Source: Clostridiales bacterium (GTDB taxonomy: Bacteria; Bacillota; Clostridia; Lachnospirales; UBA12420). From it: a stretch of 64,000 nt of DNA. Both the position numbers and the translations under genes were made by a program. Positions 3,560 through 21,356 of this stretch are shown piece after piece. Below the pieces are notes generated by a model, which did not search any database, was not told the DNA's origin, and saw only the letters and a list, made by a program, of their open reading frames with translations. How positions within the stretch are numbered: position 1 is the stretch's first letter; the number at the start of each line of letters is the position of its first letter. The DNA lies in the NCBI GenBank assembly GCA_003452395.1, contig DMOI01000014.1:13402-77401 (forward strand), in the 5' to 3' direction.

Positions 3560-3640
3560 TCATATCAGCCGCCGTGCTTCGCCACCGCTGATTGGCACAG
3601 GCATGCCGGTGCCCTACGAGGAGGGCTTACGCCCTCATTT
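3560..3640 (-). other. GC-rich three-hairpin element (possible IS200/IS605-derived end relic or small structured RNA)
   Basis: GC is clearly higher than the flanking AT-rich DNA. Hairpins: atcagc/gctgat (3564-3592), ggcac/gtgcc (3594-3613), and gagggc-ttac-gccctc (3621-3636; GUAA tetraloop on the minus strand). Shares TTGGCACA, CCGCCG and CCCTCATTT with 9141-9232. Confidence 0.4.
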
Positions 3641-4783: not shown

Positions 4784-6321
4784 TTTCCCACCTCCGACCT
4801 CTCACCTCTGACCTCTAGCACGTACCCCGGCATCTCTAGTTCCCCATCCTTTGATTTTAGCACACAGCGTTCTCTAGTATCTGGATTCAGTATTTCAACT
4901 CGTCTACCATCCTCAGTTTTAGTAATCTTACTTGTATTTGCAAGTGCTTTGGCCAGCCATCTTAGCAATATCTTTCGGGTGTTTTTTTCTATAACTGGCA
5001 AGACTTTAAAGTCTAGTATGCCTTCATTTATATAGCTATTGACTGTCTCCATATCACGTGCAATACCCTCAAGGTAAGCCTCTAGAGCCTCCTTTTTCTT
5101 ATCCGTATTATCACGTATCACGGTCTTCTCAAAGGTTTCCCTATAAGCTCTTATTCTCGGCTTGATATCTAGTAGCATCGGCTTTTCTTCATAAATGCTG
5201 CTGTTTATACTTTCTGTATCCCTAGTCAGGTTTCCCTTTATATGTCTACTTCTCTCTATCCCAAATAAATGTGACGCAAGCTTGTGAGCCTCGTGTATGT
5301 CTTTACAACCAGAAAAAAGAGTAACTATCTTAATATACTCCTCTTTTCGATTAACCACCATTCGACTACTCTCAGCTAAATGTACAGCATATCTCGTCAT
5401 CTTCCTTATGATATCATTTGTTATTTCTAGCAGCTTCTCAGACTCACTTATCATTCCTTTGCTACCTAGGAACCACTCCTTTATATTATCCCAAACCCCC
5501 GCAATGTTGTCCCTGATTTGTTCACGAGTAACCACTTCTATTTCTATTTGGGGTATTGACTTTTTATAATTTACAAGCCTTAGTATAACTTCACTTTCCA
5601 TCTTAGGAGTTATATGATTTAAATATTTCTCTATCTGATGTGCATTATCCTGCAAAGACTTTATAAAATCCCGCAAATATTCCACAAATTTATCTTTATA
5701 TACGATAAACTCCTTACTCTTTAATAGCTCATCAGCCTTCATGCTTTGGAAATTTCTTATGTAGTCTTGATAGTTTTGATTCAGCCTTTTAAAACTTATA
5801 TTCAAGTCATCCCACCAAATGCTAAGCTCTTTTTCGCTCTTGCCGTGCATATGATCAAACTGTACTATGTACTGCTTAAGCCTTTCTATAAGGGTAGGTT
5901 CAAGCGACGCACCCTCTATAAATAAATTTTCAAGTTTTATCGTCATACGCTCTATCTCAACTGTATATTCAGAAAGCCTATATCTAAATTTTTTGTTCTT
6001 AAACTCATCTATACTCTGAACCCTAGATGTATCCTGCACAGGAACGATATTCCCCCACCGAACCAAAGCCTCCAAATCCTGCAGGCACATATCCATCGTA
6101 TACTCCCGAAAAACATCATGCTTTTTAAGCTCCTCATATATTTCCTCTTTATAAAACCAGTACTTTATTTTCTCATATTGCGTAAACAAAAACCGTATTA
6201 TGGTTCGATACCTATAAGCATTATCCTCTACCAAATACTTAACCTCTACTATCTGTTTTGTTACCTTACCATTTATCTCCACACTATCACACATCCTAAG
6301 CTTTTTGTTATATTCTACCAT
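4780..6321 (-). CDS. jetA: Wadjet JetA-like protein (DUF2397/TIGR02677-type)
   Basis: 513 aa. First gene of the co-directional set. N-terminal DNAYRYRTIIRFLF region is as remembered for DUF2397. Tail LEVRGERSEVGK is encoded by a heptamer array. Confidence 0.6.
   Translation of the reverse strand: MVEYNKKLRMCDSVEINGKVTKQIVEVKYLVEDNAYRYRTIIRFLFTQYEKIKYWFYKEEIYEELKKHDVFREYTMDMCLQDLEALVRWGNIVPVQDTSRVQSIDEFKNKKFRYRLSEYTVEIERMTIKLENLFIEGASLEPTLIERLKQYIVQFDHMHGKSEKELSIWWDDLNISFKRLNQNYQDYIRNFQSMKADELLKSKEFIVYKDKFVEYLRDFIKSLQDNAHQIEKYLNHITPKMESEVILRLVNYKKSIPQIEIEVVTREQIRDNIAGVWDNIKEWFLGSKGMISESEKLLEITNDIIRKMTRYAVHLAESSRMVVNRKEEYIKIVTLFSGCKDIHEAHKLASHLFGIERSRHIKGNLTRDTESINSSIYEEKPMLLDIKPRIRAYRETFEKTVIRDNTDKKKEALEAYLEGIARDMETVNSYINEGILDFKVLPVIEKNTRKILLRWLAKALANTSKITKTEDGRRVEILNPDTRERCVLKSKDGELEMPGYVLEVRGERSEVGK
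4788..4815 (-). repeat. 4 tandem heptamers (minus strand GAGGTCA GAGGTGA GAGGTCG GAGGTGG) ending at the jetB start
   Basis: Read directly. Each unit contains the SD core GAGGT. Followed by GAAAATGA, which holds the jetA stop and jetB start. Confidence 0.9.
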
Positions 6322-6532
6322 CTTTTTCTACCTTTTTCAATATATTTACTTAAATTTTATTCTACAATCTCGTCAAAACTTCTCCATTTATATCAATTAC
6401 TTTTATTTCTACATTATCATCACCACGGAGATTATGTGACAAAATCTACATCCTAAATATTACTCATAATCTTCACTTCCCCTAAATATGCATCCACTTC
6501 TATTATGACATTTTAGGACCGTCCCCATTTGT

Positions 6533-6964
6533 CTAATGGTATCTGACCCCGTTTATTTCACTTTTTGTCTGGCACTCACTACACTCATTGTCATGTATAG
6601 AGATTATGCCACCACAAACAGAACAGGTATATTCTCTCTGTTGTAGTATCATAAACTCCACAAGTCCTATCTCTTTTACTTTGCTGCTGTTATCCATGAG
6701 ACTTGCACCATAACGAGAGTTATAGCTTTTTTCAAGTGATTTAATTCGCTTACAAGGATATTCTGAACACTCAAAACAGTAAGAAATTCCTTTTTCTTTG
6801 ACGCAATCTTTAATTTTACATTTTCGACAATGTTCTGGTTTGCCAATATCGCTGTTTAAGCAACCATCACACGGCTTCTTATTATAGCAATGCTTATAGC
6901 AAACCATGCAGTTCATTCCGCAAAGTGCAAACATTGCAACTTCAATTTTATCTGGCATTTCCAT
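6533..6964 (-). CDS. Cys-rich DUF3795-like protein
   Basis: 143 aa with many CxxC pairs (CGMNCMVCYKHC, CDGC, CRKCKIKDC, CFECSEYPC, CSVCGG, CSEC). Confidence 0.5.
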   Translation of the reverse strand: MEMPDKIEVAMFALCGMNCMVCYKHCYNKKPCDGCLNSDIGKPEHCRKCKIKDCVKEKGISYCFECSEYPCKRIKSLEKSYNSRYGASLMDNSSKVKEIGLVEFMILQQREYTCSVCGGIISIHDNECSECQTKSEINGVRYH

Positions 6965-7060
6965 ACTGCATAGCTCCTTTCAATTTCCTTCGTAAATTAG
7001 GCTTAAAATCTACGATGTCATCTATATTTTCGCCTATTTGCGGACCAATTTCACCATGGT

Positions 7061-7197
7061 CTCAGCCGTAGACTGCTTCCAATCAGATTTCGCTCACACT
7101 CATCTTCTTGGGCAGTCCTGACATGGGTAGTCGTAAAAAACTTACTTCGTCGTTTCTCTCCTTGTAAGTTTAACGACTGTCTCCACATGCATCGTAT
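7061..7197. repeat. 137-bp perfect direct repeat, copy 1 (rlmD 3'-end relic plus att core)
   Basis: Base-for-base identical to 17372-17508. Contains the core gtctccacatgcatcgt at 7179-7195. Confidence 0.9.
7142..7197 (-). pseudogene. rlmD 3'-terminal relic (...TMHVETVVKLTRRETTK*)
   Basis: Minus-strand translation matches the C-terminus of intact rlmD (TMHVETVVKLTQKV*) up to the core, then diverges. Confidence 0.7.
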
Positions 7198-7392
7198 CCC
7201 TTTTCCATTTGTTATCCTATATCATACAATATCACAGAGTATCTCTCAACCCTTTGAACAGTAAGCGGATGTGCGATACTTTTTATTTTTTTATATCTAT
7301 GTATATCTCAGAATATAATGGCATATTATCCTGTAGGTTATCAAATGGTTATCATAGTTACTTTCTTTTTTCACATTTTTCAGCTTCAATTA

Positions 7393-7704
7393 CTAACTTA
7401 TAATTGCTTTCTTCGAATTCACCCTAAAACCAATTGATATAATCATGTCAAGATTATAATACTTCACCTTATATTTCTGCCCTGTTTGACCCACATGTTC
7501 CAAAATGGAACATGTGCTACTTTCTATTAATTCTTGTTGTTTATAAATATTATTTATGTGCTTTGTAATCGCTGGTCTTTCTACTTCAAATAATTTAGAT
7601 ATAGTCTCTGCATTTAACCATACATTTTCATCACTATATATTACCTCTACCTCTGCCTTTCCATCTTCTCCAGTGTATATTAGTATATCAGATTTTTCTT
7701 TCAC
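7393..7704 (-). pseudogene. RhuM-family protein, N-terminal fragment only
   Basis: DILIYTGEDGKAEVEVIYSDENVWLNAETISKLFEVERPAITKHINNIY...YYNLDMIISIGFRVNSKKA matches the remembered RhuM N-terminus. It stops at ~100 aa, whereas the family is ~330 aa. Confidence 0.6.
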
Positions 7705-7762
7705 TAAAAGCCCTCCTTATAATATTTTATTCAATATCGCTTTTTCCCAAATTACACTTTGA

Positions 7763-7902
7763 GCAAAGTGTTTGTAATATATATCCAATTTCAATTAAAA
7801 CCCTATATTTACAGCGTTTACCCTCATTTTTGATAATCACTTCACTTTTGGTTATCAAACGGTTATCAAATGGTTATCATGAATATAGGTTACGGTTATC
7901 AT
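7763..7902. repeat. core-less att-arm junction: right-arm homologue followed by 4 GGTTATCA(A/T) copies
   Basis: 7763-7845 shares gtttgtaatatatatcc, aaaaccct.tat.tacag and atttttgataa with 17296-17371. GGTTATCAAA at 7850 and 7861; GGTTATCAT at 7872 and 7894. Confidence 0.5.
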
Positions 7903-7903
7903 T

Positions 7904-9105
7904 CTAATATGTACTTGTATTGTCAAATTTCAAATCTTCAATCCATATTTCCTTTAACAATAGGCCTGTCGATGGATTTATTAGTTTCCATTTTTCTCCG
8001 TGAAATATTATTATATCTCCTGAATTTAATTCTTTTAGTATAACATCTTTAACATTTGATTCTTTTTTTACTGATTTAGAGTTTTTAGTTTTCCCATAAG
8101 TATCAATATCATCATTTTCAATCGTATATATTCCTTCTGTTACTTTATTTACAACATTAGTTTCATCTATTTTTAAAGCAGGTCTCACGCCCACGTGGTA
8201 GTAGACAAGTTGTCTATCCAAATTCCCATTGTTATTAATATACCAAATGCATTTTGGTGCACTTGAGCACGGAGTTATAAGCCACCATGGTGTATTATTT
8301 ACACTATTTAAAAATAGCCCAGCCGATTTTGCAGACTCATACTCACTTTTTCTAAGTAACCCTATCTTTGCTTGTGTACTTTTTTCTATTTCGTTAGTGT
8401 CATCTCCTGTATACCATGTACTATCCTTTATTATTAACTTTTCTGCTGGCGTAAATGTATTATAGTACTGGTTATTCAGATAAATGCTATATTGTTAATA
8501 TTACTTGAATTATAAGATTTCCTTTGATTCAGTAGCTCTTTTTTATAGTCATCATCTGCTTTTATACCTATCATGCATAATATACTAATTATTAATGATA
8601 CAGCTAAAATAATATGAGATAGCCTCTTTGAGGTACAAAACAGGTTATACCAAATTATAGGTAACATAAATATGCCTAATATCCCGATACCCATATACCC
8701 TGGCATTAAAACTGCAATTAATCCTATAAGTCCCCAACCACTATTATGCGACAATAAAAATAATACAGAACCTATAATAATTACAATTATACTTATTACC
8801 CAATATTGTCTTAAAAACTTATTAGCTATCACTTTACAAGCTTTATCAGTAATCATAAAAAACATTAAACAAGCTGCAATATTAGAACTTATTAGTATCG
8901 TAGATAACAATATCTGCTTATTGCTCCAATTTGTTCCCTCAAGCATAGTATAGTAATATAGAATACTAGAACCTATTCCTATTAATACTAAAAATAAAGC
9001 TATAATGAAATTATTTTGGTTGTGTATTTCACCATCACAACTGCACATTTGTATTTCTTTTAGTGACTCCTCTGTAACTTTGTTTTTTCTTTTGTTAATT
9101 TCCAT
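7904..9105 (-). pseudogene. frameshifted gene: polytopic membrane N-terminus + WWLxxP...GVRPAL (DUF6273-like) C-terminal domain
   Basis: The frame of ORF 7904-8221 is open up to 8494 with no ATG/GTG/TTG before 8221 (checked codon by codon). It encodes ...NNTPWWLITPCSSAPKCIWYINNNGNLDRQLVYYHVGVRPALKID. The upstream membrane ORF 8476-9105 ends in another frame, overlapping it. Confidence 0.5.
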
Positions 9106-9140
9106 AACACCAACTCTCCTTTGTAATCATTTAACTTTTT

Positions 9141-9600
9141 AAGGTCTCCATGCTTGGCACACTCACCCGCCGCTCACCACCAGTGAAACTGGTGGGTTGA
9201 TATGAGCACCTATAAGGCGCACCCTCATTTCGCTAAAGCGAGTATTATTATTTTGCGGCAGCATAGGTTTTATTCTACCATTTCTTCTGCTCGCTGTTCT
9301 CTTATATATTTTTTGATTGTTTCTTCGTCAGCTCCTACTGTTGTTACAAAATAACCTCTTGCCCAGAATATTTTGGATTTGCTGTATTTCCATTATTGTT
9401 TGTTTTCGATATTTTGGTATAAATACTACATGGTACTTGCATTCCCACTTCGCGTGTGATAAACTATTAATCACAAACATCACTCCTTTTTTGGTATTTT
9501 CCATAGCTGCCGCTATTAGATTATACCAATTTCCGTGATGTTTGTCTTTAGTTGTCGAAAAACTTTCTGTATAACACTGTCCACGCATCCAAGCTTAGCT
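9141..9600 (-). mobile_element. IS200/IS605-family remnant
   Basis: tnpA fragments plus a GC-rich end with the hairpin ccaccag-tgaaa-ctggtgg (9175-9193). Confidence 0.6.
9270..9480 (-). pseudogene. tnpA: Y1 transposase TnpA with internal deletion and frameshift
   Basis: The N-terminal piece SLSHAKWECKYHVVFIPKYRKQ is joined out of frame to the C-terminal piece FWARGYFVTTVGADEETIKKYIREQRAEEMVE* (own translation). The ~80 central residues of the family are missing. Confidence 0.65.
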
Positions 9601-9758
9601 TGGAGGTAACTTCAATTCACTTTCAAGTGCTTCCTGAATATTAATGCTTATAGTTTTATAGTGCTTTTTTGCACTTTCAAAACATTGATTAATTTTAATC
9701 AATAATTCTCTTGATATCATTCAATCACCCCAGTAAAGTTAATCTGTATCTTTAGTAT

Positions 9759-10739
9759 TTAACTTTGTAATAATCTCAAGAATTCGTTTTCATCTATAAT
9801 TTGCAACTCACTTCCTGATGCAATTAACTGCTTTGCTTTTTTAGTTTTACTACTTTCTTTCCCGTCAGCAAACTTTGAGTAATCCTGCATCCCCATGACT
9901 AGATAATTCACATCACTAGTCATTGAATCTCCTATCAGACCACCAACATTCACTACTTTTTGCATTGCTTCTTTTCTTTCCATGCTAGATAGTGTTCCTG
10001 TAAATACTACTTTTCTATTATAAAATTCATGTTCAGGATCAAAATTATACGTCTCCGCTTTTATCCCTTTAACATCTATTCCATGCTTATCTTTTGCAAC
10101 ACTGCAAGGGGTATATCCTGCTGCAAATAACCTACCTATTTTTAATCCTACACAGTTAGAAAGTTCTGTTATCGAATTCACATTCTTCTCTTTCATACAG
10201 TGAATAAGAACATTTCCGCAGGCTTTTGCATCCTCTTCTGCATTATGATGCGAAAATTCAAAGTTTAAATGTTTACTTACCGTATCCAACTTATAATTCT
10301 CTAATCCTATCCAAAACTTTGTTGCTAACTTATATGTACATACATAATCTATTTCAGGGTACTTAATATCATATAAATCTAAAACATGCCTCAGTGCTGA
10401 CATATCAAAAGCAGCATTATGGGCTACTAAAACTGAGTCAGCTAACAACTCCTTGATTTGGCTATAAACATCTTTAAAATTCGGAGCATCTTTTATATCC
10501 TTTTCTGTAATACCATGAATCATCACATTAAACGGATCAAAGTAACTATAGTCCCTATGTGGCTTCACTAGCCAACTTTTAGTTTCTAATATTTTGTCAT
10601 CTTCAATAATTGCCAACCCTACAGAACATATACTGCCAATAAAACTATTAGCTGTTTCAAAATCAATACATACAAACTTCACACTACCACTCCTTAGCCT
10701 TTTAATTATTATATTACTACTTTTTCTAATCTTTTTCAA
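9759..10739 (-). CDS. DEDDh 3'-5' exonuclease (DnaQ-like) with C-terminal BRCT domain
   Basis: Exo motifs CIDFETAN, AHNAAFDMSAL and HHNAEEDA. C-terminal KVVFTGTLSSMERKEAMQKVVNVGG...YLVMG is BRCT-like. Confidence 0.7.
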   Translation of the reverse strand: MKKIRKSSNIIIKRLRSGSVKFVCIDFETANSFIGSICSVGLAIIEDDKILETKSWLVKPHRDYSYFDPFNVMIHGITEKDIKDAPNFKDVYSQIKELLADSVLVAHNAAFDMSALRHVLDLYDIKYPEIDYVCTYKLATKFWIGLENYKLDTVSKHLNFEFSHHNAEEDAKACGNVLIHCMKEKNVNSITELSNCVGLKIGRLFAAGYTPCSVAKDKHGIDVKGIKAETYNFDPEHEFYNRKVVFTGTLSSMERKEAMQKVVNVGGLIGDSMTSDVNYLVMGMQDYSKFADGKESSKTKKAKQLIASGSELQIIDENEFLRLLQS

Positions 10740-10766
10740 CTAATTTATTTATTTATTCTTTACTGC

Positions 10767-10791
10767 AAAATAAAAGCACTCGTTTGAGTGC
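10767..10791 (-). terminator. rho-independent terminator after the 343-aa gene
   Basis: gcactc-gttt-gagtgc hairpin followed by TTTTATTTT on the minus strand. Confidence 0.45.
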
Positions 10792-10813
10792 CTATTAAAA
10801 TCATCCTATATTC

Positions 10814-11845
10814 TTACATACCCATTTCATATTCATTTTCTTCCTCTTGTTCTTGAACATTTTCCACTATCTGCTTTTTCGTTTCTTTCACTTCTTTTTT
10901 TGAATACCCAAATGGTGTCATTTCATTTTTCTGTTCAAATTCCCCAAATGCTAATGTATCTGCCATACCTCTTATCATATCCATAGATGTTAATCTATCA
11001 GTTTCAGCTACCTTACAAATATCATTAGGATTAAATACTAAATCTCCAACATTTTGCTGTATATTGAATAAAGTACCATTTGCATACGACCATTCACTTT
11101 CAGCCGCTCCTTCAATTCCTACACCATTAATTTGGTCTATCATGCTGCCTATTTTCCCAATCTGTTCAACTGGAATATCAGATTTCAACTCGCTATCAGC
11201 CGAAGAAATTGTACCTAAAACTGCTCCTGTCTTAGTCCCTATATCTATATCGCATCTTATTTGGTCTGGATTATTTTTATTATATGTAGCTTCTACTTTA
11301 TAATGTTGACCCTTATGTTCTACTACTCTTGTTTCAACAACTGTTCCGTCAGACTTACTATCAACAGTGAACAACATACTCTTTTGGTTTTCACCTATTC
11401 CTGTTTTAGCAAATAACTTCTCAAATCTAGAACCATCTTCATAGTTTTTCATACTATATCTACATGTATTTGTTCCATGATTTCCGAAATATATGATTCC
11501 ATTTGGGTCTGTCTGTATTTTTGCTTTTCCTTTTTCACTATCAACTGACAATTCGCTCTTTGTAATTTTACCATCATAATCAGTCGCTACTACCAAATTT
11601 TGTCTTGAGTCTCTTAAGTGTGGTTGTGTTGATTCTAATTGATATTGATTATCTTTTTGTTGTATATGATATTCTATTCCTTCTGCTATATCTTTAACAT
11701 CAATGTCTACTCTTTCATCCAAATTAGTATCTGACAATCCAAGACCACATACTTGATTTTCTACATTAACTAAATCTACATAATTACCCTTAGTATTAAC
11801 TATTTTTACACTACTGCTCCCTCTATCTGTATAAATTAATGCCAT
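10814..11845 (-). CDS. hypothetical protein, 343 aa, acidic C-terminus
   Basis: ORF track. Strong SD (AAAGGGGGAG) and a consensus promoter upstream. No motif recognised. Confidence 0.6.
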   Translation of the reverse strand: MALIYTDRGSSSVKIVNTKGNYVDLVNVENQVCGLGLSDTNLDERVDIDVKDIAEGIEYHIQQKDNQYQLESTQPHLRDSRQNLVVATDYDGKITKSELSVDSEKGKAKIQTDPNGIIYFGNHGTNTCRYSMKNYEDGSRFEKLFAKTGIGENQKSMLFTVDSKSDGTVVETRVVEHKGQHYKVEATYNKNNPDQIRCDIDIGTKTGAVLGTISSADSELKSDIPVEQIGKIGSMIDQINGVGIEGAAESEWSYANGTLFNIQQNVGDLVFNPNDICKVAETDRLTSMDMIRGMADTLAFGEFEQKNEMTPFGYSKKEVKETKKQIVENVQEQEEENEYEMGM

Positions 11846-11879
11846 CTCAAACTCCCCCTTTATCTTTTGCTATGAATAA

Positions 11880-11908
11880 ATTATATCCCATATTTTTACA
11901 TTTGTCAA
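11880..11908 (-). promoter_or_regulatory. consensus sigma-A promoter TTGACA-17-TATAAT
   Basis: Minus strand caTTGACAaatgtaaaaatatgggaTATAATtt. The spacer was counted as 17 nt. It lies ~35 nt upstream of the start at 11845. Confidence 0.6.
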
Positions 11909-12040
11909 TGGTTTGGAGAAAATTAATGGTATAAATTGTAATATTTTGAAGGCTTTTTAGTTATTAATTATATCACTAGAATACATAAAGTAAGCTCACT
12001 AATTCGTTTATTTCTCTTGCGGCATATCTATTTACATTAC

Positions 12041-12577
12041 CTATTTATTTCTTGTCAGCAACTCTAGTAACTCTTCAATCGAATCTGCCAGTACTCCATT
12101 TGGGTCTTTATTCAAATCACCGAATTGACCATACTCAAAATCAATCCATTCAATCTCTCCAGTATCGTTATTAAAAACTAAAATCATGTCTCCTCTTGTA
12201 TCTTCAATAGTTCCTAACTCTATTCTCTTACCAAAATCTATTCCACCTGTCCATGATGATAACCTTGTATGTACAATCTTACTTATATCGTCATCTACTT
12301 TAATACCTAATAATGTTATAAGAATTTCCTCATTCTGCCCTTCATAGTCAAACCAATTTCCCCACTTTTCAGTTAGTTTTATTTGACTCGGATGCAAAAT
12401 TCCGTCAATTTGATTAAAACAAAAACTATTCCAAAATTCCTTTAAGTTCCTATGTAATTCAAATCCTATCGATTCTTCAACATTTTTAAATTCAATTTGA
12501 GCTGGTTCTTTTGACCCTATAAATTCCCTAACAAATTCTTTAATTTTCATATCCTTTGTCTCCCTATTCTTCTCCAT
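12041..12577 (-). CDS. SMI1/KNR4 (SUKH-1) family protein
   Basis: 178 aa. The LKEFWNSFCFNQIDG region and overall layout are as remembered for SMI1_KNR4 immunity-type proteins. Confidence 0.5.
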   Translation of the reverse strand: MEKNRETKDMKIKEFVREFIGSKEPAQIEFKNVEESIGFELHRNLKEFWNSFCFNQIDGILHPSQIKLTEKWGNWFDYEGQNEEILITLLGIKVDDDISKIVHTRLSSWTGGIDFGKRIELGTIEDTRGDMILVFNNDTGEIEWIDFEYGQFGDLNKDPNGVLADSIEELLELLTRNK

Positions 12578-12586
12578 GGTACTAAA

Positions 12587-13396
12587 TTATGAATTATTCT
12601 TTAGTTGTTCTTCTTTTCTATAAACTGCCATTCGAAGCAATGGCATCAAAGTTTTGCTCTCATCATATCTAGTACTATCTTCCTTATACTTTAAATATTC
12701 TTCATAAGAAACTGAATTTAGTTCTTCTACTGAATATATATTGTAAAAATATTTTTTAGGCATAACGAGATTGCCAGTAAAGTCAATTACATTCTCACTA
12801 TTATCTATACAAAAAGAATGATAATACTTTTGACCTAAATCTTTCATACATATCGATGTAATTGCATGATATTCTTTACTATTTTCAATTAAAAACAATG
12901 CACTTTCATGGCACCTTTCTTCGATATACTCTTTCTGTAAAAAAGTTTTTATCTTCTCCTCATTAAACTTTTCCGAGGCTTTACTAAAAGTAATTGTCCC
13001 AAACAAATGTGAATCTATTATAAAATTTCCATTGTCAGCTTTAGATACTGATTTGATAACTTCTCCTTTTATTAATGCATCTATAATAACATTAACATTT
13101 GATTTTTCTCTTGTTATTACCAAAACAAGAGAATTTAGCATTTCTTTATGATATGTTTCTATTTGTATATTGGAGTGCTCTAATGCGCTCATTAATAAAT
13201 CTTTATAATATACTAGCAGCCAAACCTTTAAGCTTTTAAAAAGTTCTCTTGGATTATTTTTGTTATACTTTACATATAAATCAGTTTTCATTTCTTCATT
13301 TAAAAAATCAATTATTTTCTTAGCATTTGATTCAGATTCTATTATCCATGATTTTTCAGATAATTCAATATATTCCGATAACTTTATTTCACCCAT
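12587..13396 (-). CDS. hypothetical protein, 269 aa
   Basis: ORF track. 9-nt gap to the SUKH gene. Confidence 0.5.
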   Translation of the reverse strand: MGEIKLSEYIELSEKSWIIESESNAKKIIDFLNEEMKTDLYVKYNKNNPRELFKSLKVWLLVYYKDLLMSALEHSNIQIETYHKEMLNSLVLVITREKSNVNVIIDALIKGEVIKSVSKADNGNFIIDSHLFGTITFSKASEKFNEEKIKTFLQKEYIEERCHESALFLIENSKEYHAITSICMKDLGQKYYHSFCIDNSENVIDFTGNLVMPKKYFYNIYSVEELNSVSYEEYLKYKEDSTRYDESKTLMPLLRMAVYRKEEQLKNNS

Positions 13397-13410
13397 ACTA
13401 ATCCCCTCTT

Positions 13411-13860
13411 TTATGTAGCCTTAAAATTCTTCATATATTCTTCTATCATTTCTAGAAGCTCTAATCCTGTCCAGTGTATATTAAGCATCTTTGCATTCTT
13501 TATACTGACTAACTCCAGTTTGCTTTCCTTTCCCGTATCGTATTCTTTTTCTGTTAAAACAAATTTATTCAGCTTATCACCAAGATTAGCAACGTACATA
13601 TGCGCATCTACTTCCCAAGTTTCACCTTTTTTATCAAATACAAAGTTTTTATGTCCAATTAAGTCATACTCTCCTTGTTTCAAGTCATAGCAAAGTTCCT
13701 CTTTTACTTCTCTTACAACAGCTTCATCTGGTGTCTCTCCTTTTTCAATACCGCCCCCAATATAACTGTATTCGTTAGTATATCCGTCTGGTCTATGCAA
13801 CAATAAAATTTTATCTCCTTCATAAAATACAATATACGATCCTGGTCTCTTTTTCATCAC
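13411..13860 (-). CDS. Nudix hydrolase
   Basis: Nudix box GGGIEKGETPDEAVVREVKEELCY. Confidence 0.75.
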   Translation of the reverse strand: MMKKRPGSYIVFYEGDKILLLHRPDGYTNEYSYIGGGIEKGETPDEAVVREVKEELCYDLKQGEYDLIGHKNFVFDKKGETWEVDAHMYVANLGDKLNKFVLTEKEYDTGKESKLELVSIKNAKMLNIHWTGLELLEMIEEYMKNFKAT

Positions 13861-14446
13861 TTCATCCCCTGTTCTAAGTTAATATGTTCTAGTGAATACA
13901 ACTTTTCATCTTCAAATACCAATTTCCACATATCAGGTGTCTTCATTTTCCCTCTATCTTCAAATCTATAATCTGGATCAAAATATCTGAACAGTGTGGA
14001 GATAGCTGTACCATGACTTGATACAATAATTATTTTACCTCTATGATTGCCGATAATACTATTAATTGCCGTAACCATTCGGTCTTGCGTTTCTCTTAGC
14101 GAGTCTCCACATTCATACTTGTAGTCCATATCTTGTCCTTGCTTCGAATCGTATTCTTTATCATCATCAGGTCTATTACCAACCAATCGTTCTCGTAAGT
14201 TTTCGTCAAAATTACTTTTAAATTATGCTTTTCGACTATGTGCTTAACTGTTTCAATAGTTCGCATATAGGGGCTAGAGTATACACATTCTGCTTACTCA
14301 AATTCTTTTCTTTCTGCCAACTTCATCGCAAGTAACGTTCCTTCTGTGCTAAGTGGCATATATGAATCGTCTTGCTTTGACACTCCATCCCTAGACCATT
14401 CCCACATTCTTTTTGAATGTCTAATTAAATAAATTGTTGTTTGCAT
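13857..14446 (-). pseudogene. histidine phosphatase (phosphoglycerate-mutase family) broken by at least two frameshifts
   Basis: Three pieces in three frames: MQTTIYLIRHSKR...KEFE*, then ..VYSSPYMRTIETVKHIVEKHNLKV.., then FDENLRERLVGNRPDD...VSSHGTAISTLF. SD AGGAG precedes ATG 14444-14446. Confidence 0.6.
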
Positions 14447-14480
14447 ATCATTTCTCCTGCTTGTTTTTTAAACAGTAGCA

Positions 14481-15590
14481 GGGTCAGGTTTGATTTATTC
14501 ACTTACTCTATCTTCCAATTACCTCGTCCATATAAACCGTCATCATAATCTCTCCTGCTCTTATCTTAAAGAAGTAACAACAAATGGTGTCAGGTTTATT
14601 TAACAAATGGTAACAAATGGTGTCGGTTTATTTTATTCACTTATTCCACCTTCCTATTACTTCATCCATATAAACCGTCATCATAATTTCTCCTGCTCTT
14701 ATCTTAGATATCCTAGATATCGGGATGTTTAATTTATTTGCGAGTTCTGTACTAGAAGTTTTACAGTTTTTTTCAGCTAATATAACTATTACTTTTCTTA
14801 TATCAGATATTTTTTGCTTTTTTGTTTTTTCTCTTATTTGTTCAAATGTTACTTTTTCTTGTTCTAATATTTCTTCTATTAGTTTATCTAATCCTATATA
14901 CTTTGTCTTATCTATGTTCCCTTTTTGTGCTTCTGTAACCTCGTATTCTACTTGTTCTATGTCTCCATCTTCTTCTTTCATATATATATTGTATTCTCCT
15001 ATTGCTTTAGACTTATTATTCGATAATATTTTCAGTACAAAATCGGTATCAACTAAACCATTCTTTCCATTTGCATATTCTTTATAACTACTCCATTCGT
15101 AATTTACATCTTCCGTCATATGTGCTTTTACTGGATTCATATGTATGTATTTTGTTAAGTGCAATAAATATCCATCTTTATTACACACAACTGCTTTATA
15201 TCTTTGCTGAAATACATGTCCTGTTCTTTTGTTTTTTCTATTATATATTTGTGTATAAACAAGTTGTATGCCTTGCATTATCTTGTTTAATGGAACTTTT
15301 TCAACTTCTACCAACATATGTATGTGGTTATCCATTATACAATATGCATATAGCTTGAACCCATATCTTTCTTTATATCTCTGAATTAGTTCTATATATT
15401 TTGTTTTATCTTCGTCGTTTTTTAATATATATTCACCATTATTTCCTCTGGCTATTACATGGTACAATGCACCATCATAATGTATCCTTTGCTTTCTTGG
15501 CATTTTTATCACCTCGAAAACATTTTAACATATATTTTATGATGTTTCAATAGATTTTAATATAATATATGAATAAATCAAACCTGACCC
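14481..15590. mobile_element. RAYT-like unit bounded by 21-bp perfect inverted repeats
   Basis: gggtcaggtttgatttattca (14481-14501) is the exact reverse complement of 15570-15590. Degenerate extra copies at 14585-14605 and 14616-14640. Confidence 0.6.
14637..15503 (-). CDS. Y1 (IS200-like / REP-associated RAYT-type) transposase with C-terminal DnaA-C-like HTH
   Basis: MPRKQRIHYDGALYHVIARGNNGEYIL...YAYCIMDNHIHMLVE. C-terminal ISDIRKVIVILAEKNCKTSSTELANKLNIPISRISKI. Start moved to ATG 15503 (SD GAGGTG). Confidence 0.65.
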   Translation of the reverse strand: MPRKQRIHYDGALYHVIARGNNGEYILKNDEDKTKYIELIQRYKERYGFKLYAYCIMDNHIHMLVEVEKVPLNKIMQGIQLVYTQIYNRKNKRTGHVFQQRYKAVVCNKDGYLLHLTKYIHMNPVKAHMTEDVNYEWSSYKEYANGKNGLVDTDFVLKILSNNKSKAIGEYNIYMKEEDGDIEQVEYEVTEAQKGNIDKTKYIGLDKLIEEILEQEKVTFEQIREKTKKQKISDIRKVIVILAEKNCKTSSTELANKLNIPISRISKIRAGEIMMTVYMDEVIGRWNK

Positions 15591-15594
15591 CACT

Positions 15595-16020
15595 CTACTT
15601 TTTACTCTTTATTATTTCTTTTTCAATTGCAAGTTGAACTGTTTTACCAATTAGTAAGTCAAGTAATTCTAAATCCTTTAGACGAAGTTTTCTAAACTTT
15701 GTTAATGAACTTGCATTTATTACGTCTGCTTCTGGTGCAATATCAAGAAAGTATTTAAATGACATATCATATCTTGAACGCTCAACTACATCAATATCCG
15801 ATAGCAAATGAATCACTTTTAGTAACAGATATTTAAACATTTGGATTGGATCAATTGCAGTTCGCCCGTTAACCATTGAATATTTATCTTTTAGCTCTTT
15901 ATAAATAAAACTGAAGTTTATTAATTCTTTGATTTTTCTCAATATATTATCTTTTGGTACTACTATATCATAAATGTTTGTATATTCGCTTATATTCAAG
16001 CTTTGTTGTGCGTTCAACAT
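15595..16020 (-). pseudogene. IS1182/IS5-type transposase, N-terminal (DUF772) fragment
   Basis: NGRTAIDPIQMFKYLLLKVIHLLSDIDVVERSRYDMSFKYFLD. The reading frame ends 4 nt from the RAYT-unit inverted repeat. Confidence 0.6.
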
Positions 16021-16147
16021 ATAATCACCCTTTGTTTTCTAGTATGTCTAATTATACCAAAAAAACTTAATTTATAATATAGTTTTTTGCATTTATTCAT
16101 ATTTTATGCTGACTTTTTCAGTGGCCTCGATACGTCCCCGATTCGCA

Positions 16148-16164
16148 GTCTCTGTATGCATCGT
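16148..16164. repeat. degenerate att core copy (14 of 17 positions)
   Basis: gtctctgtatgcatcgt versus gtctccacatgcatcgt. Followed by an arm homologous to 7198-7355 and 17509-17640. Confidence 0.5.
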
Positions 16165-16424
16165 ACTAATCTTCCGTTTGTTTTCCTATATCTCACAATG
16201 TCACACAGTGTCTCACAGTCCTTTGACTTCTAAGTGGATGGGGATACTGTTTATTTTTTTGTATCTCAGTGTATCTCAGAATGTTGTGGTGTGTTTTACT
16301 CACGGTTATCATAGTTTTGCGGGGTAGGTTTGTCAAAGCGGTTATCATTTGGTTATCAATCTTTTTAAGATATCATTTATTAATCTCTTTCTACATATAT
16401 TAAATTGTAACTTTATTTTTAAAT

Positions 16425-17207
16425 CTAACTCTTTCCAAAATACTTAGTAAACCATTGTTCACTCATATTTATTAAAATATCATAATAATGTTCTTGAAAA
16501 CTATGCGTTGCACCATCAATAACTTCAATTCTTGACTCGGTAGATAAATATTTAACTGCATTCTTTGAATTCTTCAAAAGTAGCCTTTCTTCTTCATCGT
16601 TATTACCATGAATTATTAAAACTGGGCATGCTACATTTCTTAACATTTCTTCTGAATTAACCTGCTCAAAATCCAAAAGTGTTTGAGCAGTAATTTTTAT
16701 ATATTGCCTCCAGTTAGATGCAGCTTCATATAAAGTATATCCTTTATCTCTTAATTCGCTCATTTGTTGTTCTGAAAGATATTGGTTCCAATCGTAATAC
16801 ACAGGAGCAGTACAAGCACCAGATAATACCATTGTTATAATATCATTAGAATAACAATTTAAACAAATCAAAGTTCCAAGACTATGACCATAAAAAGCAA
16901 GTTTTTCATAACCTAAGGATCTAACATGATCAATAGCGTTTTTTAAATCATCAATTTGATTACTAACAGTTATAACTTCATCTTCACTTTCACCACATCC
17001 GCTAAAATCAAAAGCCAATACATCAATTTCTAATTCATTTAATTTTTTTGCCATTTTTTCAAATCTTCCACTTGAATGTTTATCGGAAGTAAATCCATGA
17101 CACATAATCACAATAACTTTAGAATTACATGTATATAAGTTTCCGATTAAATCTAAGTTTCCGATTAAATCTAAGTTTCTAGAATTTTTAAATATAACTC
17201 TTTTCAT
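16425..17207 (-). CDS. alpha/beta hydrolase
   Basis: Nucleophile elbow GHSLG. HG oxyanion region MCHGFTSD. Contains an in-frame 18-bp tandem duplication (NLDLIGNLDLIG). Confidence 0.7.
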   Translation of the reverse strand: MKRVIFKNSRNLDLIGNLDLIGNLYTCNSKVIVIMCHGFTSDKHSSGRFEKMAKKLNELEIDVLAFDFSGCGESEDEVITVSNQIDDLKNAIDHVRSLGYEKLAFYGHSLGTLICLNCYSNDIITMVLSGACTAPVYYDWNQYLSEQQMSELRDKGYTLYEAASNWRQYIKITAQTLLDFEQVNSEEMLRNVACPVLIIHGNNDEEERLLLKNSKNAVKYLSTESRIEVIDGATHSFQEHYYDILINMSEQWFTKYFGKS

Positions 17208-17371
17208 AATGTATGCCCCCTAATTTTATTTAATCTCCACATCTGACACAATCAGAAACTATATCATATTGTGTTGCACAATGTATTACTGTGTTTCCTG
17301 AAGTTTGTAATATATATCCTTTTTATGTAAAACCCTTTATCTACAGGATTTATATGCATTTTGATAACCGC

Positions 17372-17508
17372 CTCAGCCGTAGACTGCTTCCAATCAGATT
17401 TCGCTCACACTCATCTTCTTGGGCAGTCCTGACATGGGTAGTCGTAAAAAACTTACTTCGTCGTTTCTCTCCTTGTAAGTTTAACGACTGTCTCCACATG
17501 CATCGTAT
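17372..17508. repeat. 137-bp perfect direct repeat, copy 2
   Basis: Identical to 7061-7197. Contains the rlmD relic 17453-17508. Confidence 0.9.
17490..17506. repeat. prophage attL core gtctccacatgcatcgt
   Basis: Same 17-mer as 54947-54963 inside rlmD. Confidence 0.7.
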
Positions 17509-17530
17509 TCTACCACCGTTTATCTTCCTA

Positions 17531-17631
17531 TATCTCACAATATCTCATAGTATCTCACAGACCTTTGAACAGTAAGCGGATGTGGGATACTATTTATTTT
17601 TTTATATCTATGTATATCTCATTATATCACA
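17531..17631. promoter_or_regulatory. two clusters of three 10-bp-phased TATCTCA-like repeats (putative arm-type or accessory-factor sites)
   Basis: tatctcacaa/tatctcatag/tatctcacag at 17531, 17541 and 17551. tatatcta/tatatctc/tatatcac at 17603, 17613 and 17623. Confidence 0.4.
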
Positions 17632-17647
17632 CAGTATTTTCTCCCAC

Positions 17648-17665
17648 GGTGGCAAACGGGTGGCA
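17648..17665 (+). promoter_or_regulatory. tandem GGTGGCAAAC GGGTGGCA motif (putative integrase arm site, attL side)
   Basis: Same motif as 54863-54883 beside the integrase gene. Confidence 0.45.
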
Positions 17666-17772
17666 GAGTTTACAGTTTTTTACTGGTAACTATATTTCTA
17701 AATCTTTGCATTATCTCGTTATTGTAATCCTACTCTATTTCAATTAGCATACAAGTGACAAAATTTTCGCTT

Positions 17773-20577
17773 CTAATTTCTATTTTTCTTTTTTCTCTTA
17801 CCCTTCATTTTATATACTTTACTGTTATCTTTTAAATTAAATTTGTAATTTACAAAGCATTTTAAATTGACCAATGTCTTTAGATATTCTTTTTGTTTAT
17901 CTAGACCCTCTATTTCATTTAACCATTCTGGTTTGCTCTTAATAAGCTCTTCCATTAATTCTGTTTCTTCCCCATCTTCCATAAATGTTAAAATCTTAAT
18001 ACATATTTTCCCTACTTCATAATTTGCATCTTCTACCTTTGATTTAAACATTTCAAGCTCAATATCTTTTTCATTTAGAATATATATATATTCTTCTTCA
18101 GAGGCAAATACATAATATACATTCACATATACATCTTCATTTAAAATTTGCCCTATGAATGTCCCTTCGTACTTGTTATCCCTTATATTTATTTCATTAA
18201 CCCTAACTTCTCTATTTATTCTGTAGAATGGTTCAAAATTAGCGCCGAAAATATCTCTTAAATCCTCTGTCCACATATTCGTCACTAAAATATTATTGTG
18301 TCCTATATTTTTTAGAAATATCGACTTTGACATTATTTCTGCTCTTCCACTTATCAATTTATAGAAATCTTTATTTAATTGATCATAGAATCCTCTTACA
18401 TAACCTGCAGCATACTGGCTATATCCAACGCTTGAATCTACGAATATTTCTTTTTTCTGCATCGTATTCATTATTTTCTGGTTTTCTTCAATTCCATATT
18501 GATCTTTTTCTTCATAATTACCATACAACTTTAGTATCTTTAGTAAATCAGAGCTTTTATTATATTCATCAAAAAACTCTTTATAAAATCTCTCTAAATA
18601 TTTCGTTGATAATTCACTCGATTTTACCCTTTCGATTTCGGCTATTTTTTGTTTTTCCTTTTCCGATTTTAATATTTCTAGCAATGAGTTTATACACTCT
18701 TCTAAATTTTTATTATATATCTGTGCTATATCGATAATATATTGCTTATACTCTTTTTCAGTGTAATATTTTATAACACCTTCTATCATACTTATAAGCA
18801 TGTCATTACTTTCTATAGTTAATGTGGTTTCTATTTTCTCATAGTTTACTAAGCATCCAATAAGAAGTAAGTCTTTTATATAATTATGTGTTTCACACCA
18901 CCATGTTTCTACCCACATATTGTATTCTCTTTCTCCAAAATCTTCCCAATAATCAGTCATACTTCCAAATTTACTGTCTTCACACAATAGTTCCAGTAAG
19001 TCCTGAATATATGTGCTTAGAGATATATCTTTCAGAAAATACATTATTTGCTCTTTTAGATCTGGTTGCTCTTGTTTACGTGATAGATATAAGCAAACTC
19101 CATATCTGATATATCTTGACTTTCTATCTGTATGTTTTTTAACTTGTTTCAATAAATTATCGTATTGAATATGTACATTTATATTTATTATATTTTGAGA
19201 AAACTTAATAACTTTGTTGCTAAGTTTTTTATTTTTCACTTTAATTGTCCATATTAGTAATTTTTGTAAAAGTAGATATATCGTATCAATCTTATTGATT
19301 AATCTCTCTTTTAACTGCACATCCTTTTGCTTGCTAATACTATCAATATCATCCTCTATAGAATAATGTAGACTAGAATATAAAATATCTAATAGTTGTT
19401 CTATTACTGTGACACTATCTTCTATGCTTTTGCCTTTATACAATGTCTCACACCATAAAAATGCATCACTAAAAGATTCACTATTATACTCTTCGCTAAT
19501 GTATTTACACCATATATTTGTTAGTTTTCTAATCATATTCATATTCTTAATATCCTTACTTTTAAGTAATACACCCTCTAGTCCTATTATTAAATATTCT
19601 TTAACAACTTCCCCTTGTGATAGTATTTCCTTTTTTACATATTTTGCTAATATATCTATATATAATTCAAAATATTCAAAATCATTCAATAGCATCTTCT
19701 CAGATATTATTGCAATTAAATCATTCTTATACACATATGGTTTTTTTACTTTTCGTATTTCTATTAAGTCATCAAAGTCCGATAATTTAATAGACTTATG
19801 AATTAAAACCACACTTTCATTATTGTTAACATAGTCTCCTATCTCTTTTTGAATAATTACATAATACTCTGGATTTTCTTTTTGATTAGTGTTATTATTG
19901 AAAGGTTTATCTACCAAATTAATAATTTTATTAATTTTTTTATAATTAATCTTTTCAAATATTCCTTCCTTATTATATTTTACTTCCCTATAATCATCTG
20001 CATTATTAAATATAATAAATCCATACTTGTCAATTGTACATTTCTTATTAAGCTTGTGTTCGTAGTCAATACTATTTTTCAGTATTTTTGCATTTATTAG
20101 TTCTTTATATCTTTTTTGAAAGTATTCTTCAGCTGATTTTTTATATAATTCCATTGCCATCTCATTATTGCACAAATCTCGCACTGCCTTAATTATAAAT
20201 CCACCAAGTAGCACTAATGCTAAGAAAGATATTAGTTTCACACGTATGAAGCAAAAAAATATTGATAGCACTACTATTCCCACAGTGATTTCCTTAACTT
20301 TTGTAATATTAAAGTATACCTGTTTCTTATATCTATCCTTCACTTGAGCAATATAAATATATAGTGAAATTGCAACAGTAGCAAATATACCTAATATTGT
20401 TGTAGCATCAACATCAAGTATTCCATCAATGTACGTATAATAAATCACAACAGCATTAACAAAATTATTGATGCCTACAAAAAATGTGCTAGTATCAATA
20501 AAATTAATTATAATCGTGACTACTAAAACATATAATGCCTTTTTATCATTTGTCATACTTTTCATAACCTCACCCAC
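17773..20577 (-). CDS. 934-aa protein with N-terminal multi-pass membrane domain and large helical K/E/I/Y-rich soluble part; function unknown
   Basis: About 4-5 hydrophobic segments in residues ~15-140. No catalytic motif recognised. Alternative start at ATG 20565. Confidence 0.65.
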   Translation of the reverse strand: MGEVMKSMTNDKKALYVLVVTIIINFIDTSTFFVGINNFVNAVVIYYTYIDGILDVDATTILGIFATVAISLYIYIAQVKDRYKKQVYFNITKVKEITVGIVVLSIFFCFIRVKLISFLALVLLGGFIIKAVRDLCNNEMAMELYKKSAEEYFQKRYKELINAKILKNSIDYEHKLNKKCTIDKYGFIIFNNADDYREVKYNKEGIFEKINYKKINKIINLVDKPFNNNTNQKENPEYYVIIQKEIGDYVNNNESVVLIHKSIKLSDFDDLIEIRKVKKPYVYKNDLIAIISEKMLLNDFEYFELYIDILAKYVKKEILSQGEVVKEYLIIGLEGVLLKSKDIKNMNMIRKLTNIWCKYISEEYNSESFSDAFLWCETLYKGKSIEDSVTVIEQLLDILYSSLHYSIEDDIDSISKQKDVQLKERLINKIDTIYLLLQKLLIWTIKVKNKKLSNKVIKFSQNIININVHIQYDNLLKQVKKHTDRKSRYIRYGVCLYLSRKQEQPDLKEQIMYFLKDISLSTYIQDLLELLCEDSKFGSMTDYWEDFGEREYNMWVETWWCETHNYIKDLLLIGCLVNYEKIETTLTIESNDMLISMIEGVIKYYTEKEYKQYIIDIAQIYNKNLEECINSLLEILKSEKEKQKIAEIERVKSSELSTKYLERFYKEFFDEYNKSSDLLKILKLYGNYEEKDQYGIEENQKIMNTMQKKEIFVDSSVGYSQYAAGYVRGFYDQLNKDFYKLISGRAEIMSKSIFLKNIGHNNILVTNMWTEDLRDIFGANFEPFYRINREVRVNEINIRDNKYEGTFIGQILNEDVYVNVYYVFASEEEYIYILNEKDIELEMFKSKVEDANYEVGKICIKILTFMEDGEETELMEELIKSKPEWLNEIEGLDKQKEYLKTLVNLKCFVNYKFNLKDNSKVYKMKGKRKKKNRN

Positions 20578-20651
20578 CTATATAAGTTTCTTGTTATTGT
20601 TTACATATCCGTATGTGGAGACCTTCATCTAATCTCAATATCCAAAACACT

Positions 20652-21356
20652 TTACAGTTTTTTACTGATAGTTGCAGTGTCTGTCCCTATTACGGATAAC
20701 TCCGCCAATACACTATTTTTAAAGTCCAGCACTTCCTTTACATCCCTCTGCTTTTTCAAATCATCTATGTAATATAATATTCCTTCAGATATGTCAGGTC
20801 TCGTTATTAAATAATTATACTCTTCAATAAATTCCGCATATAATTTACTTGCATGAGATTGAAACTTCTCTTTATACTCTTTTTGCAAAACCCCTGTAGA
20901 CTCATGACCTGTAAAAGGGTCCATTACTTTAGGTACGAAAGCTATATTCCATGGTGCTTCAAAAAGAAAAATATTTTTAGTCCTTCCAAAGATATGTGAC
21001 ACTTGATAATTAAATATATTTTCATTACGAATATAATTTGTTAATTCTGATATTATCTTTTGAGGTTCTGAATTATTAGTAGGATCCTTTTTTACATTAT
21101 TATTTTTAAATAAGTACTTATACAAGTCAATATACAAACTCGTTCCTTTTGCATCCCTCCCATACCCTCGGATTTTAACTGCGCCATCATTAAATATTCT
21201 ATTTTTAAGATCTTTCCAATTTTCAGAAACCGAGTCAATTGGCGGCAAGATAGTTTCATCTATACCAAATTTATATAACTCTTCCTTGTTAATATTAAAC
21301 TTCTTTATAAATTTCTCATATGAATCTTTTTTCTCCAACTCCAACATTAATATCAC
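20652..21356 (-). CDS. 234-aa protein, weak HNH/beta-beta-alpha-Me-like motif
   Basis: YQVSHIFGRTKNIFLFEAPWNIAFVPKVMDPFTGH resembles the HNH_2-type pattern (His ... Asn ... His). This is a weak call. Confidence 0.3.
   Translation of the reverse strand: MILMLELEKKDSYEKFIKKFNINKEELYKFGIDETILPPIDSVSENWKDLKNRIFNDGAVKIRGYGRDAKGTSLYIDLYKYLFKNNNVKKDPTNNSEPQKIISELTNYIRNENIFNYQVSHIFGRTKNIFLFEAPWNIAFVPKVMDPFTGHESTGVLQKEYKEKFQSHASKLYAEFIEEYNYLITRPDISEGILYYIDDLKKQRDVKEVLDFKNSVLAELSVIGTDTATISKKL

Follow-up and report, generated by a model that had tools for sequence, protein, structure and literature searches.

In the accretion model of island evolution, an element integrates, decays until little but an integrase-less remnant with its end repeats is left, and is then joined by a second element that integrates at the site that has retained the gene end (PMC5704250). 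Such a remnant, termed a cis-mobilizable element (CIME), is found in tandem accretion with an integrative and conjugative element (ICE) at the 3' end of fda in Streptococcus thermophilus, where the elements concerned are ICESt1 and ICESt3 (Pavlovic 2004; Bellanger 2011; summarised in PMC5704250). Here we describe a 64-kb stretch of DNA (the window) of an uncultured groundwater Clostridiales, in which the 3' end of rlmD adjoins an intact prophage and, beyond it, an integrase-less block (7198-17371) that is bracketed by two copies of a 137-nt repeat. We consider it likely that the whole stretch from rlmD to its original downstream flank arose as a tandem array, through one site-specific integration after another, and that it includes a decayed, CIME-like island. 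The principal features are the following.

7061-7197, minus strand: R1, the distal copy of the 137-nt repeat, made up of 81 nt of host flank, the native C-terminal codons of rlmD (TMHVETVVKLTRRETTK*) and the core at 7179-7195
17372-17508, minus strand: R2, the proximal copy of the 137-nt repeat, which doubles as the host-side half of the distal attachment site of the prophage
17509-54946, no strand assigned: intact prophage P of ~37.4 kb, delimited by its arm sites, integrase, CI-like repressor and the gene content of L003
53720-54856, plus strand: tyrosine integrase of the prophage, 378 aa, with Arm-DNA-bind_4 (PF14657), SAM-like (PF14659) and catalytic (PF00589) domains according to Pfam
54919-56328, minus strand: intact gene of an rlmD/rumA-type 23S rRNA (uracil-5)-methyltransferase, 469 aa, with TRAM and tRNA_U5-methyltransferase domains

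Like the fda CIME, the block is a decayed element without an integrase that lies between repeats of the 3' end of its target gene, in tandem with a functional element of the same core, and the three-step history of the model matches as well. The direct repeats derive from the 3' end of the target, contain the core and agree at 137 of 137 nt, and 7198-17371 is devoid of genes for integration and transfer. The functional partner, on the other hand, is an ICE at fda and a prophage here, and one of the two ends of the block lacks direct arm sites, excision being only predicted from sequence in the present case. The distal attachment site of the block retains an intact integrase-distal arm (X arm) with paired sites; the proximal one has a single inverted site, and its direct sites are replaced by host flank. 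Prophage and block share a 17-nt core, GTCTCCACATGCATCGT, but their arm sites differ (GGTGGCA in the prophage, GGTTATCA in the block), and because of this difference, which sets the remnant apart from the fda CIME, its cis-mobilisation by the prophage is doubtful.

Other described elements resemble the locus in their target. The streptococcal ICEs that target rumA and CTn5 of Clostridioides difficile also enter the gene of a 23S rRNA uracil-5-methyltransferase and alter the C-terminus of the protein, but do so by means of single serine integrases, with repeats of 2-21 bp and an attachment site inside the integrase gene (PMC4701971). The only integrase of the present locus is a tyrosine recombinase, endowed with an arm-binding domain and acting on a 17-nt core and arm sites, so that the locus falls outside this class. 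The initial annotation called rumA/rlmD a known hotspot in Firmicutes. The streptococcal rumA hotspot has the target in common with our locus but not the mechanism, since its serine integrases recombine within the gene (PMC4701971); rlmD/rum is also listed among the hotspots of phage-ICE tandems (PMC13651849). As at our locus, these tandems consist of a prophage and another integrated element that have accreted site-specifically at rlmD; their partners are both functional and co-transferred, whereas here the partner is a remnant without a recombinase. Tandem genomic islands of Dehalococcoides are reported to integrate site-specifically at the single-copy gene ssrA (PMC3146451). They differ from the present locus in target (tmRNA), host phylum and integrases.

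A further point of comparison is phage lambda, whose attachment site (attP) combines a core with arm-type sites that lie on both arms at fixed distances, and whose integrase has a separate arm-binding domain. The product of 53720-54856 has an N-terminal arm-binding domain and a catalytic domain, and repeated sites are present on both arms at fixed distances from a common core, a layout that recurs in four related loci (L068, L162, L164, L167). The binding of the integrase to its arms is predicted by analogy.

The 137-nt repeat is exact. Its two copies are identical at 137 of 137 positions, the first base past either end already differs, and self-BLAST and direct comparison find no third copy within the window. 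The minus strand of both copies encodes TMHVETVVKLTRRETTK*, followed by 81 nt, and the leftward continuation of R1 is a host gene (DUF3795). An unoccupied rlmD site is found in the sister species Clostridiales bacterium GWD2_32_19 (L013), and in the same form in a JGI metagenome contig (L093). In both, rlmD ends in ...VVKLTRREATK*, and its last codons plus 41 nt of flank, contiguous with the gene, are 95% identical to window 7101-7197. Because the unoccupied site of the sister species joins such sequence directly to rlmD, the repeat represents the native rlmD 3' end of the host together with its flank; R1 is the original of the two copies. The last 40 nt of the repeat (7061-7100) are absent from the sister species and specific to this lineage. 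When the metagenome collection was searched with the repeat, the sole match was the rlmD 3' end of the sister species, and this one outside match, next to two copies in the window, is not the distribution of a dispersed repeat family unrelated to rlmD. In these respects (perfect repeats, a relic rlmD C-terminus with 81 bp of flank in each, and an origin from rlmD) the initial annotation proved correct. The repeat has no Rfam matches, no tRNA and no terminator-like site. Separately, the minus strand of 7040-7200 is predicted to fold at -48.1 kcal/mol (z = -3.3 against shuffled controls), again without an Rfam match or a canonical terminator. In the sister species, the unoccupied site is followed by two genes, for a 469-aa ATPase-like protein and a 328-aa protein, which resemble a defence pair (L013 11938-14343).

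A perfect repeat in metagenomic DNA calls for a look at the assemblies. The window derives from ANAN16-1 scaffold_70, a scaffold of a groundwater metagenome, and its organism is represented at NCBI by the metagenome-assembled genome GCA_001797235.1; contigs assembled at k=127, from whichever side they enter the repeat, break off after precisely 127 nt of it. Both circumstances are compatible with an artefact, in which the repeat would be single-copy in the chromosome and the block either a separate one-copy circle or the DNA of another strain. The independent assembly ERZ27254730, made at k=141, speaks against this: its contig L160 corresponds to window 1-13048 (flank, first copy and block) and its contig L005 to 15919-27207 (block, second copy and prophage), each at 100% identity. 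Since k=141 exceeds the length of the repeat, these contigs bridge both copies, and contig L006 of the NCBI genome (from ~15919/15972 to 27207) concurs with L005 and is 100% identical to the window. An artefact would moreover require junctions of flank, repeat and prophage arm and of block, repeat and block arm, which are seen in no contig. None of the contigs that carry either flanking gene represents a block-less variant, and the block is retained in 6/6 contigs with the prophage end gene. The observed junctions are those of the integrated tandem form, not those of a block-less chromosome plus a separate circle; an artefact has thereby been ruled out for the most part, and we give it next to no credence.

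The core that unites the array is located in the last codons of rlmD. It occurs exactly at 7179, 17490 and 54947 (54947-54963 in rlmD) and with 14 of 17 positions conserved at 16148 (GTCTCTGTATGCATCGT); matches with up to three mismatches are expected 0.09 times by chance. A further core-like match at 14103, with three mismatches, was dismissed as a chance occurrence because arm homology is missing; it sits in a coding motif. The product of the intact rlmD ends in ...FPHTMHVETVVKLTQKV*. To the left of the gene follow, in this order, the replacement C-terminus supplied by the prophage (...VVKLTQKV*), a pair of GGTGGCA sites with a spacing of 11 nt, the same site in inverted orientation and the integrase gene. 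The sites of this integrase-proximal arm (Y arm) are located at 54843 (inverted), 54864 and 54875. At its far end, 17509, the prophage shows the core and then an X arm with two GGTGGCA sites, at 17648 and 17659 (+158). A CI-like repressor is encoded upstream of the integrase, and the gene content, assessed via L003, includes an excisionase-like HTH_17 protein, replication genes, terminase and HNH. The prophage also carries, near its distal end, a restriction-modification module with an LlaMI/MvaI-BcnI-type endonuclease between two cytosine DNA methylases (22278-25507), and a 930-aa protein without a family match (17773-20565) adjoins its attachment site.

Inside the block, four arm relics can be recognised.

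7198-7354, plus strand: X arm of a GGTTATCA-type element, identified by alignment, self-BLAST and motif clustering
7770-7901, plus strand: orphan Y-arm relic, consisting of a 75-nt segment homologous to 17303-17371 and then sites, with no core after them
16148-16360, plus strand: degenerate core GTCTCTGTATGCATCGT (14/17) and another X arm of the GGTTATCA type, whose sites lie at 16304, 16340 and 16351
17303-17371, plus strand: truncated Y arm, homologous to 7770-7844, with an inverted GGTTATCA site (17362-17369) at its end

The first X arm has paired GGTTATCA sites at 7336 and 7347, 11 nt apart and 157 nt off the core. In the orphan Y arm, a degenerate inverted site (7838-7845) precedes four direct GGTTATCA sites (7850, 7861, 7872 and 7894), in a layout (7838-7901) that matches the prophage arm at 54843-54881. 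The three homologous X arms each begin directly after a core, and all three have their arm sites at +156 to +158. That the sequences to the right of both 137-nt copies are homologous had been noted from the start, but their identity, put at ~90%, is lower in ungapped alignment: 76/95 (80%) or 98/119 (82%), and a value of ~92% arises only if the perfect 137 nt are included. The prophage X arm is 80% identical to the arm at the 7179 core and 75-80% identical to the one at 16148, where the previously proposed third, degenerate core with its homologous arm aligns as described.

Both arm-site motifs are overrepresented. GGTTATCA occurs 13 times in the window against 1.9 expected, 10 of the 13 copies falling into four clusters at arms, and GGTGGCA occurs 11 times against 2.7 expected, likewise clustered at arms. 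By count and clustering GGTTATCA is a genuine arm-site type, to which a cognate integrase would be expected to bind. Apart from these sites, the integrase-distal arms (7220-7260, 16190-16230 and 17530-17565, and also L167 1500-1540) contain about three tandem units of ~11 nt with the consensus (A/G)T(A/G)TC(T/A)CA, which begin ~40 nt from the core (the first TATCTCA lies at 17533, the core at 17490). All of them have a conserved AAG(C/T)GGATG and T-rich tracts in addition. These units and tracts could be family-wide sites of an accessory factor, Xis-like or IHF-like, independent of the arm-site type.

On this basis we propose that repeated site-specific integration at GTCTCCACATGCATCGT would have built the array, through tyrosine integrases of the lambda-like kind, which would form a single family with an arm-binding domain at the N-terminus, a common core and differing arm sites of 7-8 nt. 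Their common layout would comprise an X-arm pair 11 nt apart, ~157 nt off the core, and a Y arm with an inverted site and two to four direct ones. Nearest to rlmD would lie the intact 37-kb prophage, using GGTGGCA; beyond it would follow 10.2 kb of composite DNA from two or more older elements, users of GGTTATCA that may have lost their integrases and most of their backbone through deletions and insertion sequence (IS) activity. Serial integration at a single site, as originally suggested, is thus well borne out by a tandem array on one 17-nt core. Four cores delimit three intervals, one of which is the prophage, and at least two older elements are therefore secure; of the at least three once claimed, the third is possible, on account of the orphan Y arm at 7838-7901. 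Their arrival before the prophage, also part of that claim, cannot be read from the sequence, and the older age that we assign to them is accordingly provisional.

The number of elements could be reduced to one if the attachment site of the block simply shared 137 nt with the host, and if the 16148 core and the extra arms were rearrangements or captured fragments. Attachment sites of HP1-type and T12-type phages do share 96-182 nt with the host, exactly two perfect repeats bracket the block, and in other species small islands lie between repeats of 40-120 nt made of the rlmD 3' end and its flank. Yet the block contains a second complete unit of core and X arm, with sites at the canonical +156 offset, and at 7838-7901 all the sites of a Y arm are clustered although a core is missing. 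In a canonical GGTTATCA-type Y arm, direct sites occupy the place that host flank takes in R2, and since the last 40 nt of the repeat are absent from the sister species, the copy of the element would have to stem from this very lineage. A single element therefore seems unlikely to us.

The serial integration that we prefer does not account for R2 without a further step. Plain accretion leads one to expect element-specific replacement C-termini at internal junctions, and this is what is seen at 16148, where a 17-codon tail that is not RlmD-like (ANRGRIEATEKVSIKYE, translated by hand) lies to the left of the core, and at the prophage (TQKV). Elements that target the 3' end of a gene generally bring a replacement 3' end, as the initial annotation stated; 17372-17508, an internal position, does not show this pattern. 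There, the exact host flank, including its 40 lineage-specific nt, is joined 2 nt after a truncated arm: the Y arm at 17303-17371 has no direct sites, and host sequence starts 2 nt past its inverted site, at the point from which direct sites follow in the intact arm (7838-7901). Because this internal copy carries host flank on a cut-off arm and not an element-specific C-terminus, one illegitimate joint is required.

According to our proposal, R2 would have taken the place of the normal integrase-proximal arm of the adjoining relic by one illegitimate event, most likely an aberrant excision in which 120 nt of host flank were captured before the element re-inserted, either at the core or by way of the homology; break repair that copied the distal repeat would be the alternative. 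Aberrant excision of the lambda dgal type is indeed known to leave captured host flank against a truncated arm. In contrast to lambda dgal, the capture here would amount to just 120 nt, and a helper with the matching specificity is missing. If R2 was instead made in place by repair and not by movement of an element, a break in the Y arm of the relic would have been mended with the distal copy as template, by leftward synthesis for which the core and the ~80%-similar arms served as primer, and completed by end joining. The sharp, non-homologous left boundary and the homologous right boundary of R2 would suit such a course, as would zero divergence over 137 nt beside arms that differ by about 20%. 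Clear microhomology is not visible at the joint by eye, and the outcome is indistinguishable from that of aberrant excision and re-integration, each of which needs one illegitimate joint. We favour aberrant excision; break repair is an alternative of equal mechanism, and an origin of R2 in place by such repair we rate as distinctly improbable.

The two GGTTATCA-type units invite yet another reading. Those at 7179-7901 and 16148-17371 each start with a core and its X arm, carry a single cargo gene and end in Y-arm sites, which a conserved 75-nt segment precedes. Because two units with unrelated cargo share their flanking backbone, with homology that starts at the same point, they might be miniature integrase-less cassettes, moved in trans by a GGTTATCA-type tyrosine integrase, and not deletion products. 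If so, the rlmD 3' end would be a platform that collects cassettes, in a loosely integron-like manner, but we strongly doubt that it is.

In the account that we favour, deletion and IS activity have reduced the older elements to their present state, and the content of the block is that of a decayed island. It was surveyed with Pfam, PHROGs and PADLOC.

7393-7704, minus strand: RhuM/Bro-N fragment, 103 aa, the N-terminal third only (positions 3-42 of 252 of Pfam PF13310)
7902-14480, minus strand: cargo and debris (Pfam, PHROGs and PADLOC scans), including a 105-aa open reading frame (ORF), a membrane protein, a 343-aa unknown, a SUKH-like protein, a 269-aa unknown and a NUDIX protein
9328-9588, minus strand: IS200 fragment, 86 aa (Pfam)
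9759-10739, minus strand: DEDDh exonuclease with BRCT (Pfam)
13857-14186, minus strand: C-terminal fragment of a histidine phosphatase, 109 aa (Pfam)
14481-15590, minus strand: IS-like unit of 1.1 kb with 31-nt terminal inverted repeats (Pfam)
15595-16020, minus strand: N-terminal fragment of a DUF772 (IS5/IS1182-type) transposase, 141 aa (Pfam)
16425-17207, minus strand: cargo gene of an alpha/beta hydrolase, 260 aa (Pfam; esterase/lipase in PHROGs)

Four of these are gene fragments (RhuM, IS200, histidine phosphatase and DUF772 transposase) and, together with the IS-like unit, they substantiate the IS remnants and three or more pseudogenes reported in the initial annotation. The RhuM fragment is matched by PADLOC models of PDC-S05 over about residues 1-101 of 330-346. 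Several cargo genes match candidate-defence models, the DEDDh exonuclease, NUDIX, SUKH-like and alpha/beta hydrolase genes being among the cargo. Between the repeats (7198-17371) no integrase or recombinase was found by Pfam, applied to all ORFs of at least 100 aa and ten smaller ones, or by tblastn with the prophage integrase, as had been supposed; there are likewise no relaxase or phage structural genes, transposase remnants are of IS type only, and no tRNA is present. Against cultured phages the DNA of the block gives one 66-nt transposase match only. The block today is probably inert. With arm sites that do not suit the resident integrase and with one incomplete end it is probably immobile, and the prophage should excise alone, through its own pair of sites. 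RecA-dependent loss of the block by recombination between the 137-nt copies would be plausible, but no contig with either flanking gene lacks the block.

The product of the IS-like unit (14637-15512) is an IS200-type Y1 transposase fused to a DnaA_C-like helix-turn-helix domain. A 91%-identical partial copy, starting at the same terminus, is present in sister species L013, which marks the unit as mobile. Inverted repeats of 31 nt are unusual for IS200, and the unit has an internal direct repeat of 82 nt (14487-14568 and 14625-14706, 89% identical). In both sister species (L013 and L014), homologues of the unit are found downstream of rlmD, no more than a few kb away. That the block is native chromosome, a reading suggested by the presence of a Y1-transposase gene downstream of rlmD in three species, was rejected because the unit has terminal inverted repeats and a partial copy in L013, and is therefore mobile and multi-copy. 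The DUF772 fragment is a multi-copy repeat and an assembly breakpoint as well, at which L005, L006, L008 and L011 all end (~15919-15972).

Relatives of the prophage integrase place the family at rlmD in other genomes. A similar phage in the sister species (L162/L163) encodes an integrase 80% identical to it, beside rlmD and with GGTGGCA sites; 59% (L164/L165, CGTGAGCA sites) and 56% identical integrases (L068, Tepidibacter mesophilus, TTGCCAAC sites) also adjoin rlmD, as does one of 33% identity in Metabacillus kandeliae (L081). Most relatives with fetched context thus show the same layout beside rlmD with other site sequences, whereas the contig of a 58%-identical homologue (L166) ends 47 nt past the gene, with no rlmD visible. 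Among 80 species representatives, two carry the family at rlmD. Its arm-site variants are GGTGGCA, GTTGGCA, GTGGGCA, CGTGAGCA and GGTTATCA. A 54%-identical integrase (L167) is accompanied by a free attP in which Y arm, core and X arm are contiguous. The order at L167 1380-1680 is an inverted site, two GTGGGCA, the peptide HVECVVLIVRQ*, core-like sequence and a distal arm with sites ~155 nt away; HVECVVLIVRQ* corresponds to a replacement rlmD C-terminus, and L167 can serve as a template of the family attP.

The search for intact relatives with a GGTTATCA-type integrase, which had been recommended, came back empty. None of the four nearest integrase homologues of differing sequence (80%, 59%, 58% and 54% identical) uses GGTTATCA in its context, integrase relatives on viral contigs are at most 40% identical and those of cultured phages at most 41%, and a scan of IMG/VR with the conserved X-arm pattern gave 0 matches. 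A scan of IMG/VR with GGTTATCANNNGGTTATCA gave 47 matches, which we regard as unrelated because none has arm, core or integrase similarity and their GC content ranges from 28 to 70%.

Integrase-less islands at rlmD are not confined to this organism. In three of 80 other Firmicutes species (Romboutsia maritimum, Paeniclostridium hominis and Mediterraneibacter hominis), islands of 2-5 kb without an integrase lie between 40-120-nt repeats of the rlmD 3' end and its flank (L078 11430-11560 and 13650-13780; L044 16140; L070 14390). The islands of these three other genera have a common motif, GTGTT(T/C)(A/C)C(A/T)TA, ~15 nt before the relic core, which hints that a different recombinase family may also target rlmD. 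The island in L078 has a RhuM gene by its distal repeat, as does the block.

Several of these observations weigh against the tandem array as we interpret it. The empty site was compared in another species, with RlmD 85% identical between the window organism and L013, and not in a genome of the same species. With neither a GGTTATCA-type integrase nor an intact relative in the IMG/VR pattern scans and the contexts of integrase homologues, the 'element family' of the block is defined by arm anatomy. Long identity between attP and the host site (attB) could be ordinary and would then call for no special event, since three other species have repeats of 40-120 nt. The cargo shows no hallmark of a phage or conjugative element in the PHROGs and PADLOC scans, and the second copy of the host flank would fit either capture or break repair.

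The locus shows, junction by junction, how islands build up and decay at the 3' end of a housekeeping gene, here in a Clostridiales lineage from groundwater that is uncultured. Because the accretion of genomic islands at one spot is well known, it is a clear but ordinary example that leaves the current understanding of accretion and hotspots unchanged. A tyrosine-integrase family that keeps its rlmD core while it swaps arm-site specificity provides, in addition, a natural series for the co-evolution of arm-binding domain and arm site.

The neighbourhood to the left of the repeat (window 1-6321 and beyond; L160 10859-17901) is occupied by a Wadjet-like, condensin-type operon that encodes DUF2397, DUF2398, a 1347-aa SMC/SbcC-like ATPase and a DUF2399/JetD_C protein. 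Genes for a Bro-N protein (2215-3048) and a GNAT acetyltransferase, together with a full-length RhuM gene, break up this operon. Its GC content is 36-40%, compared with ~31% in the block.

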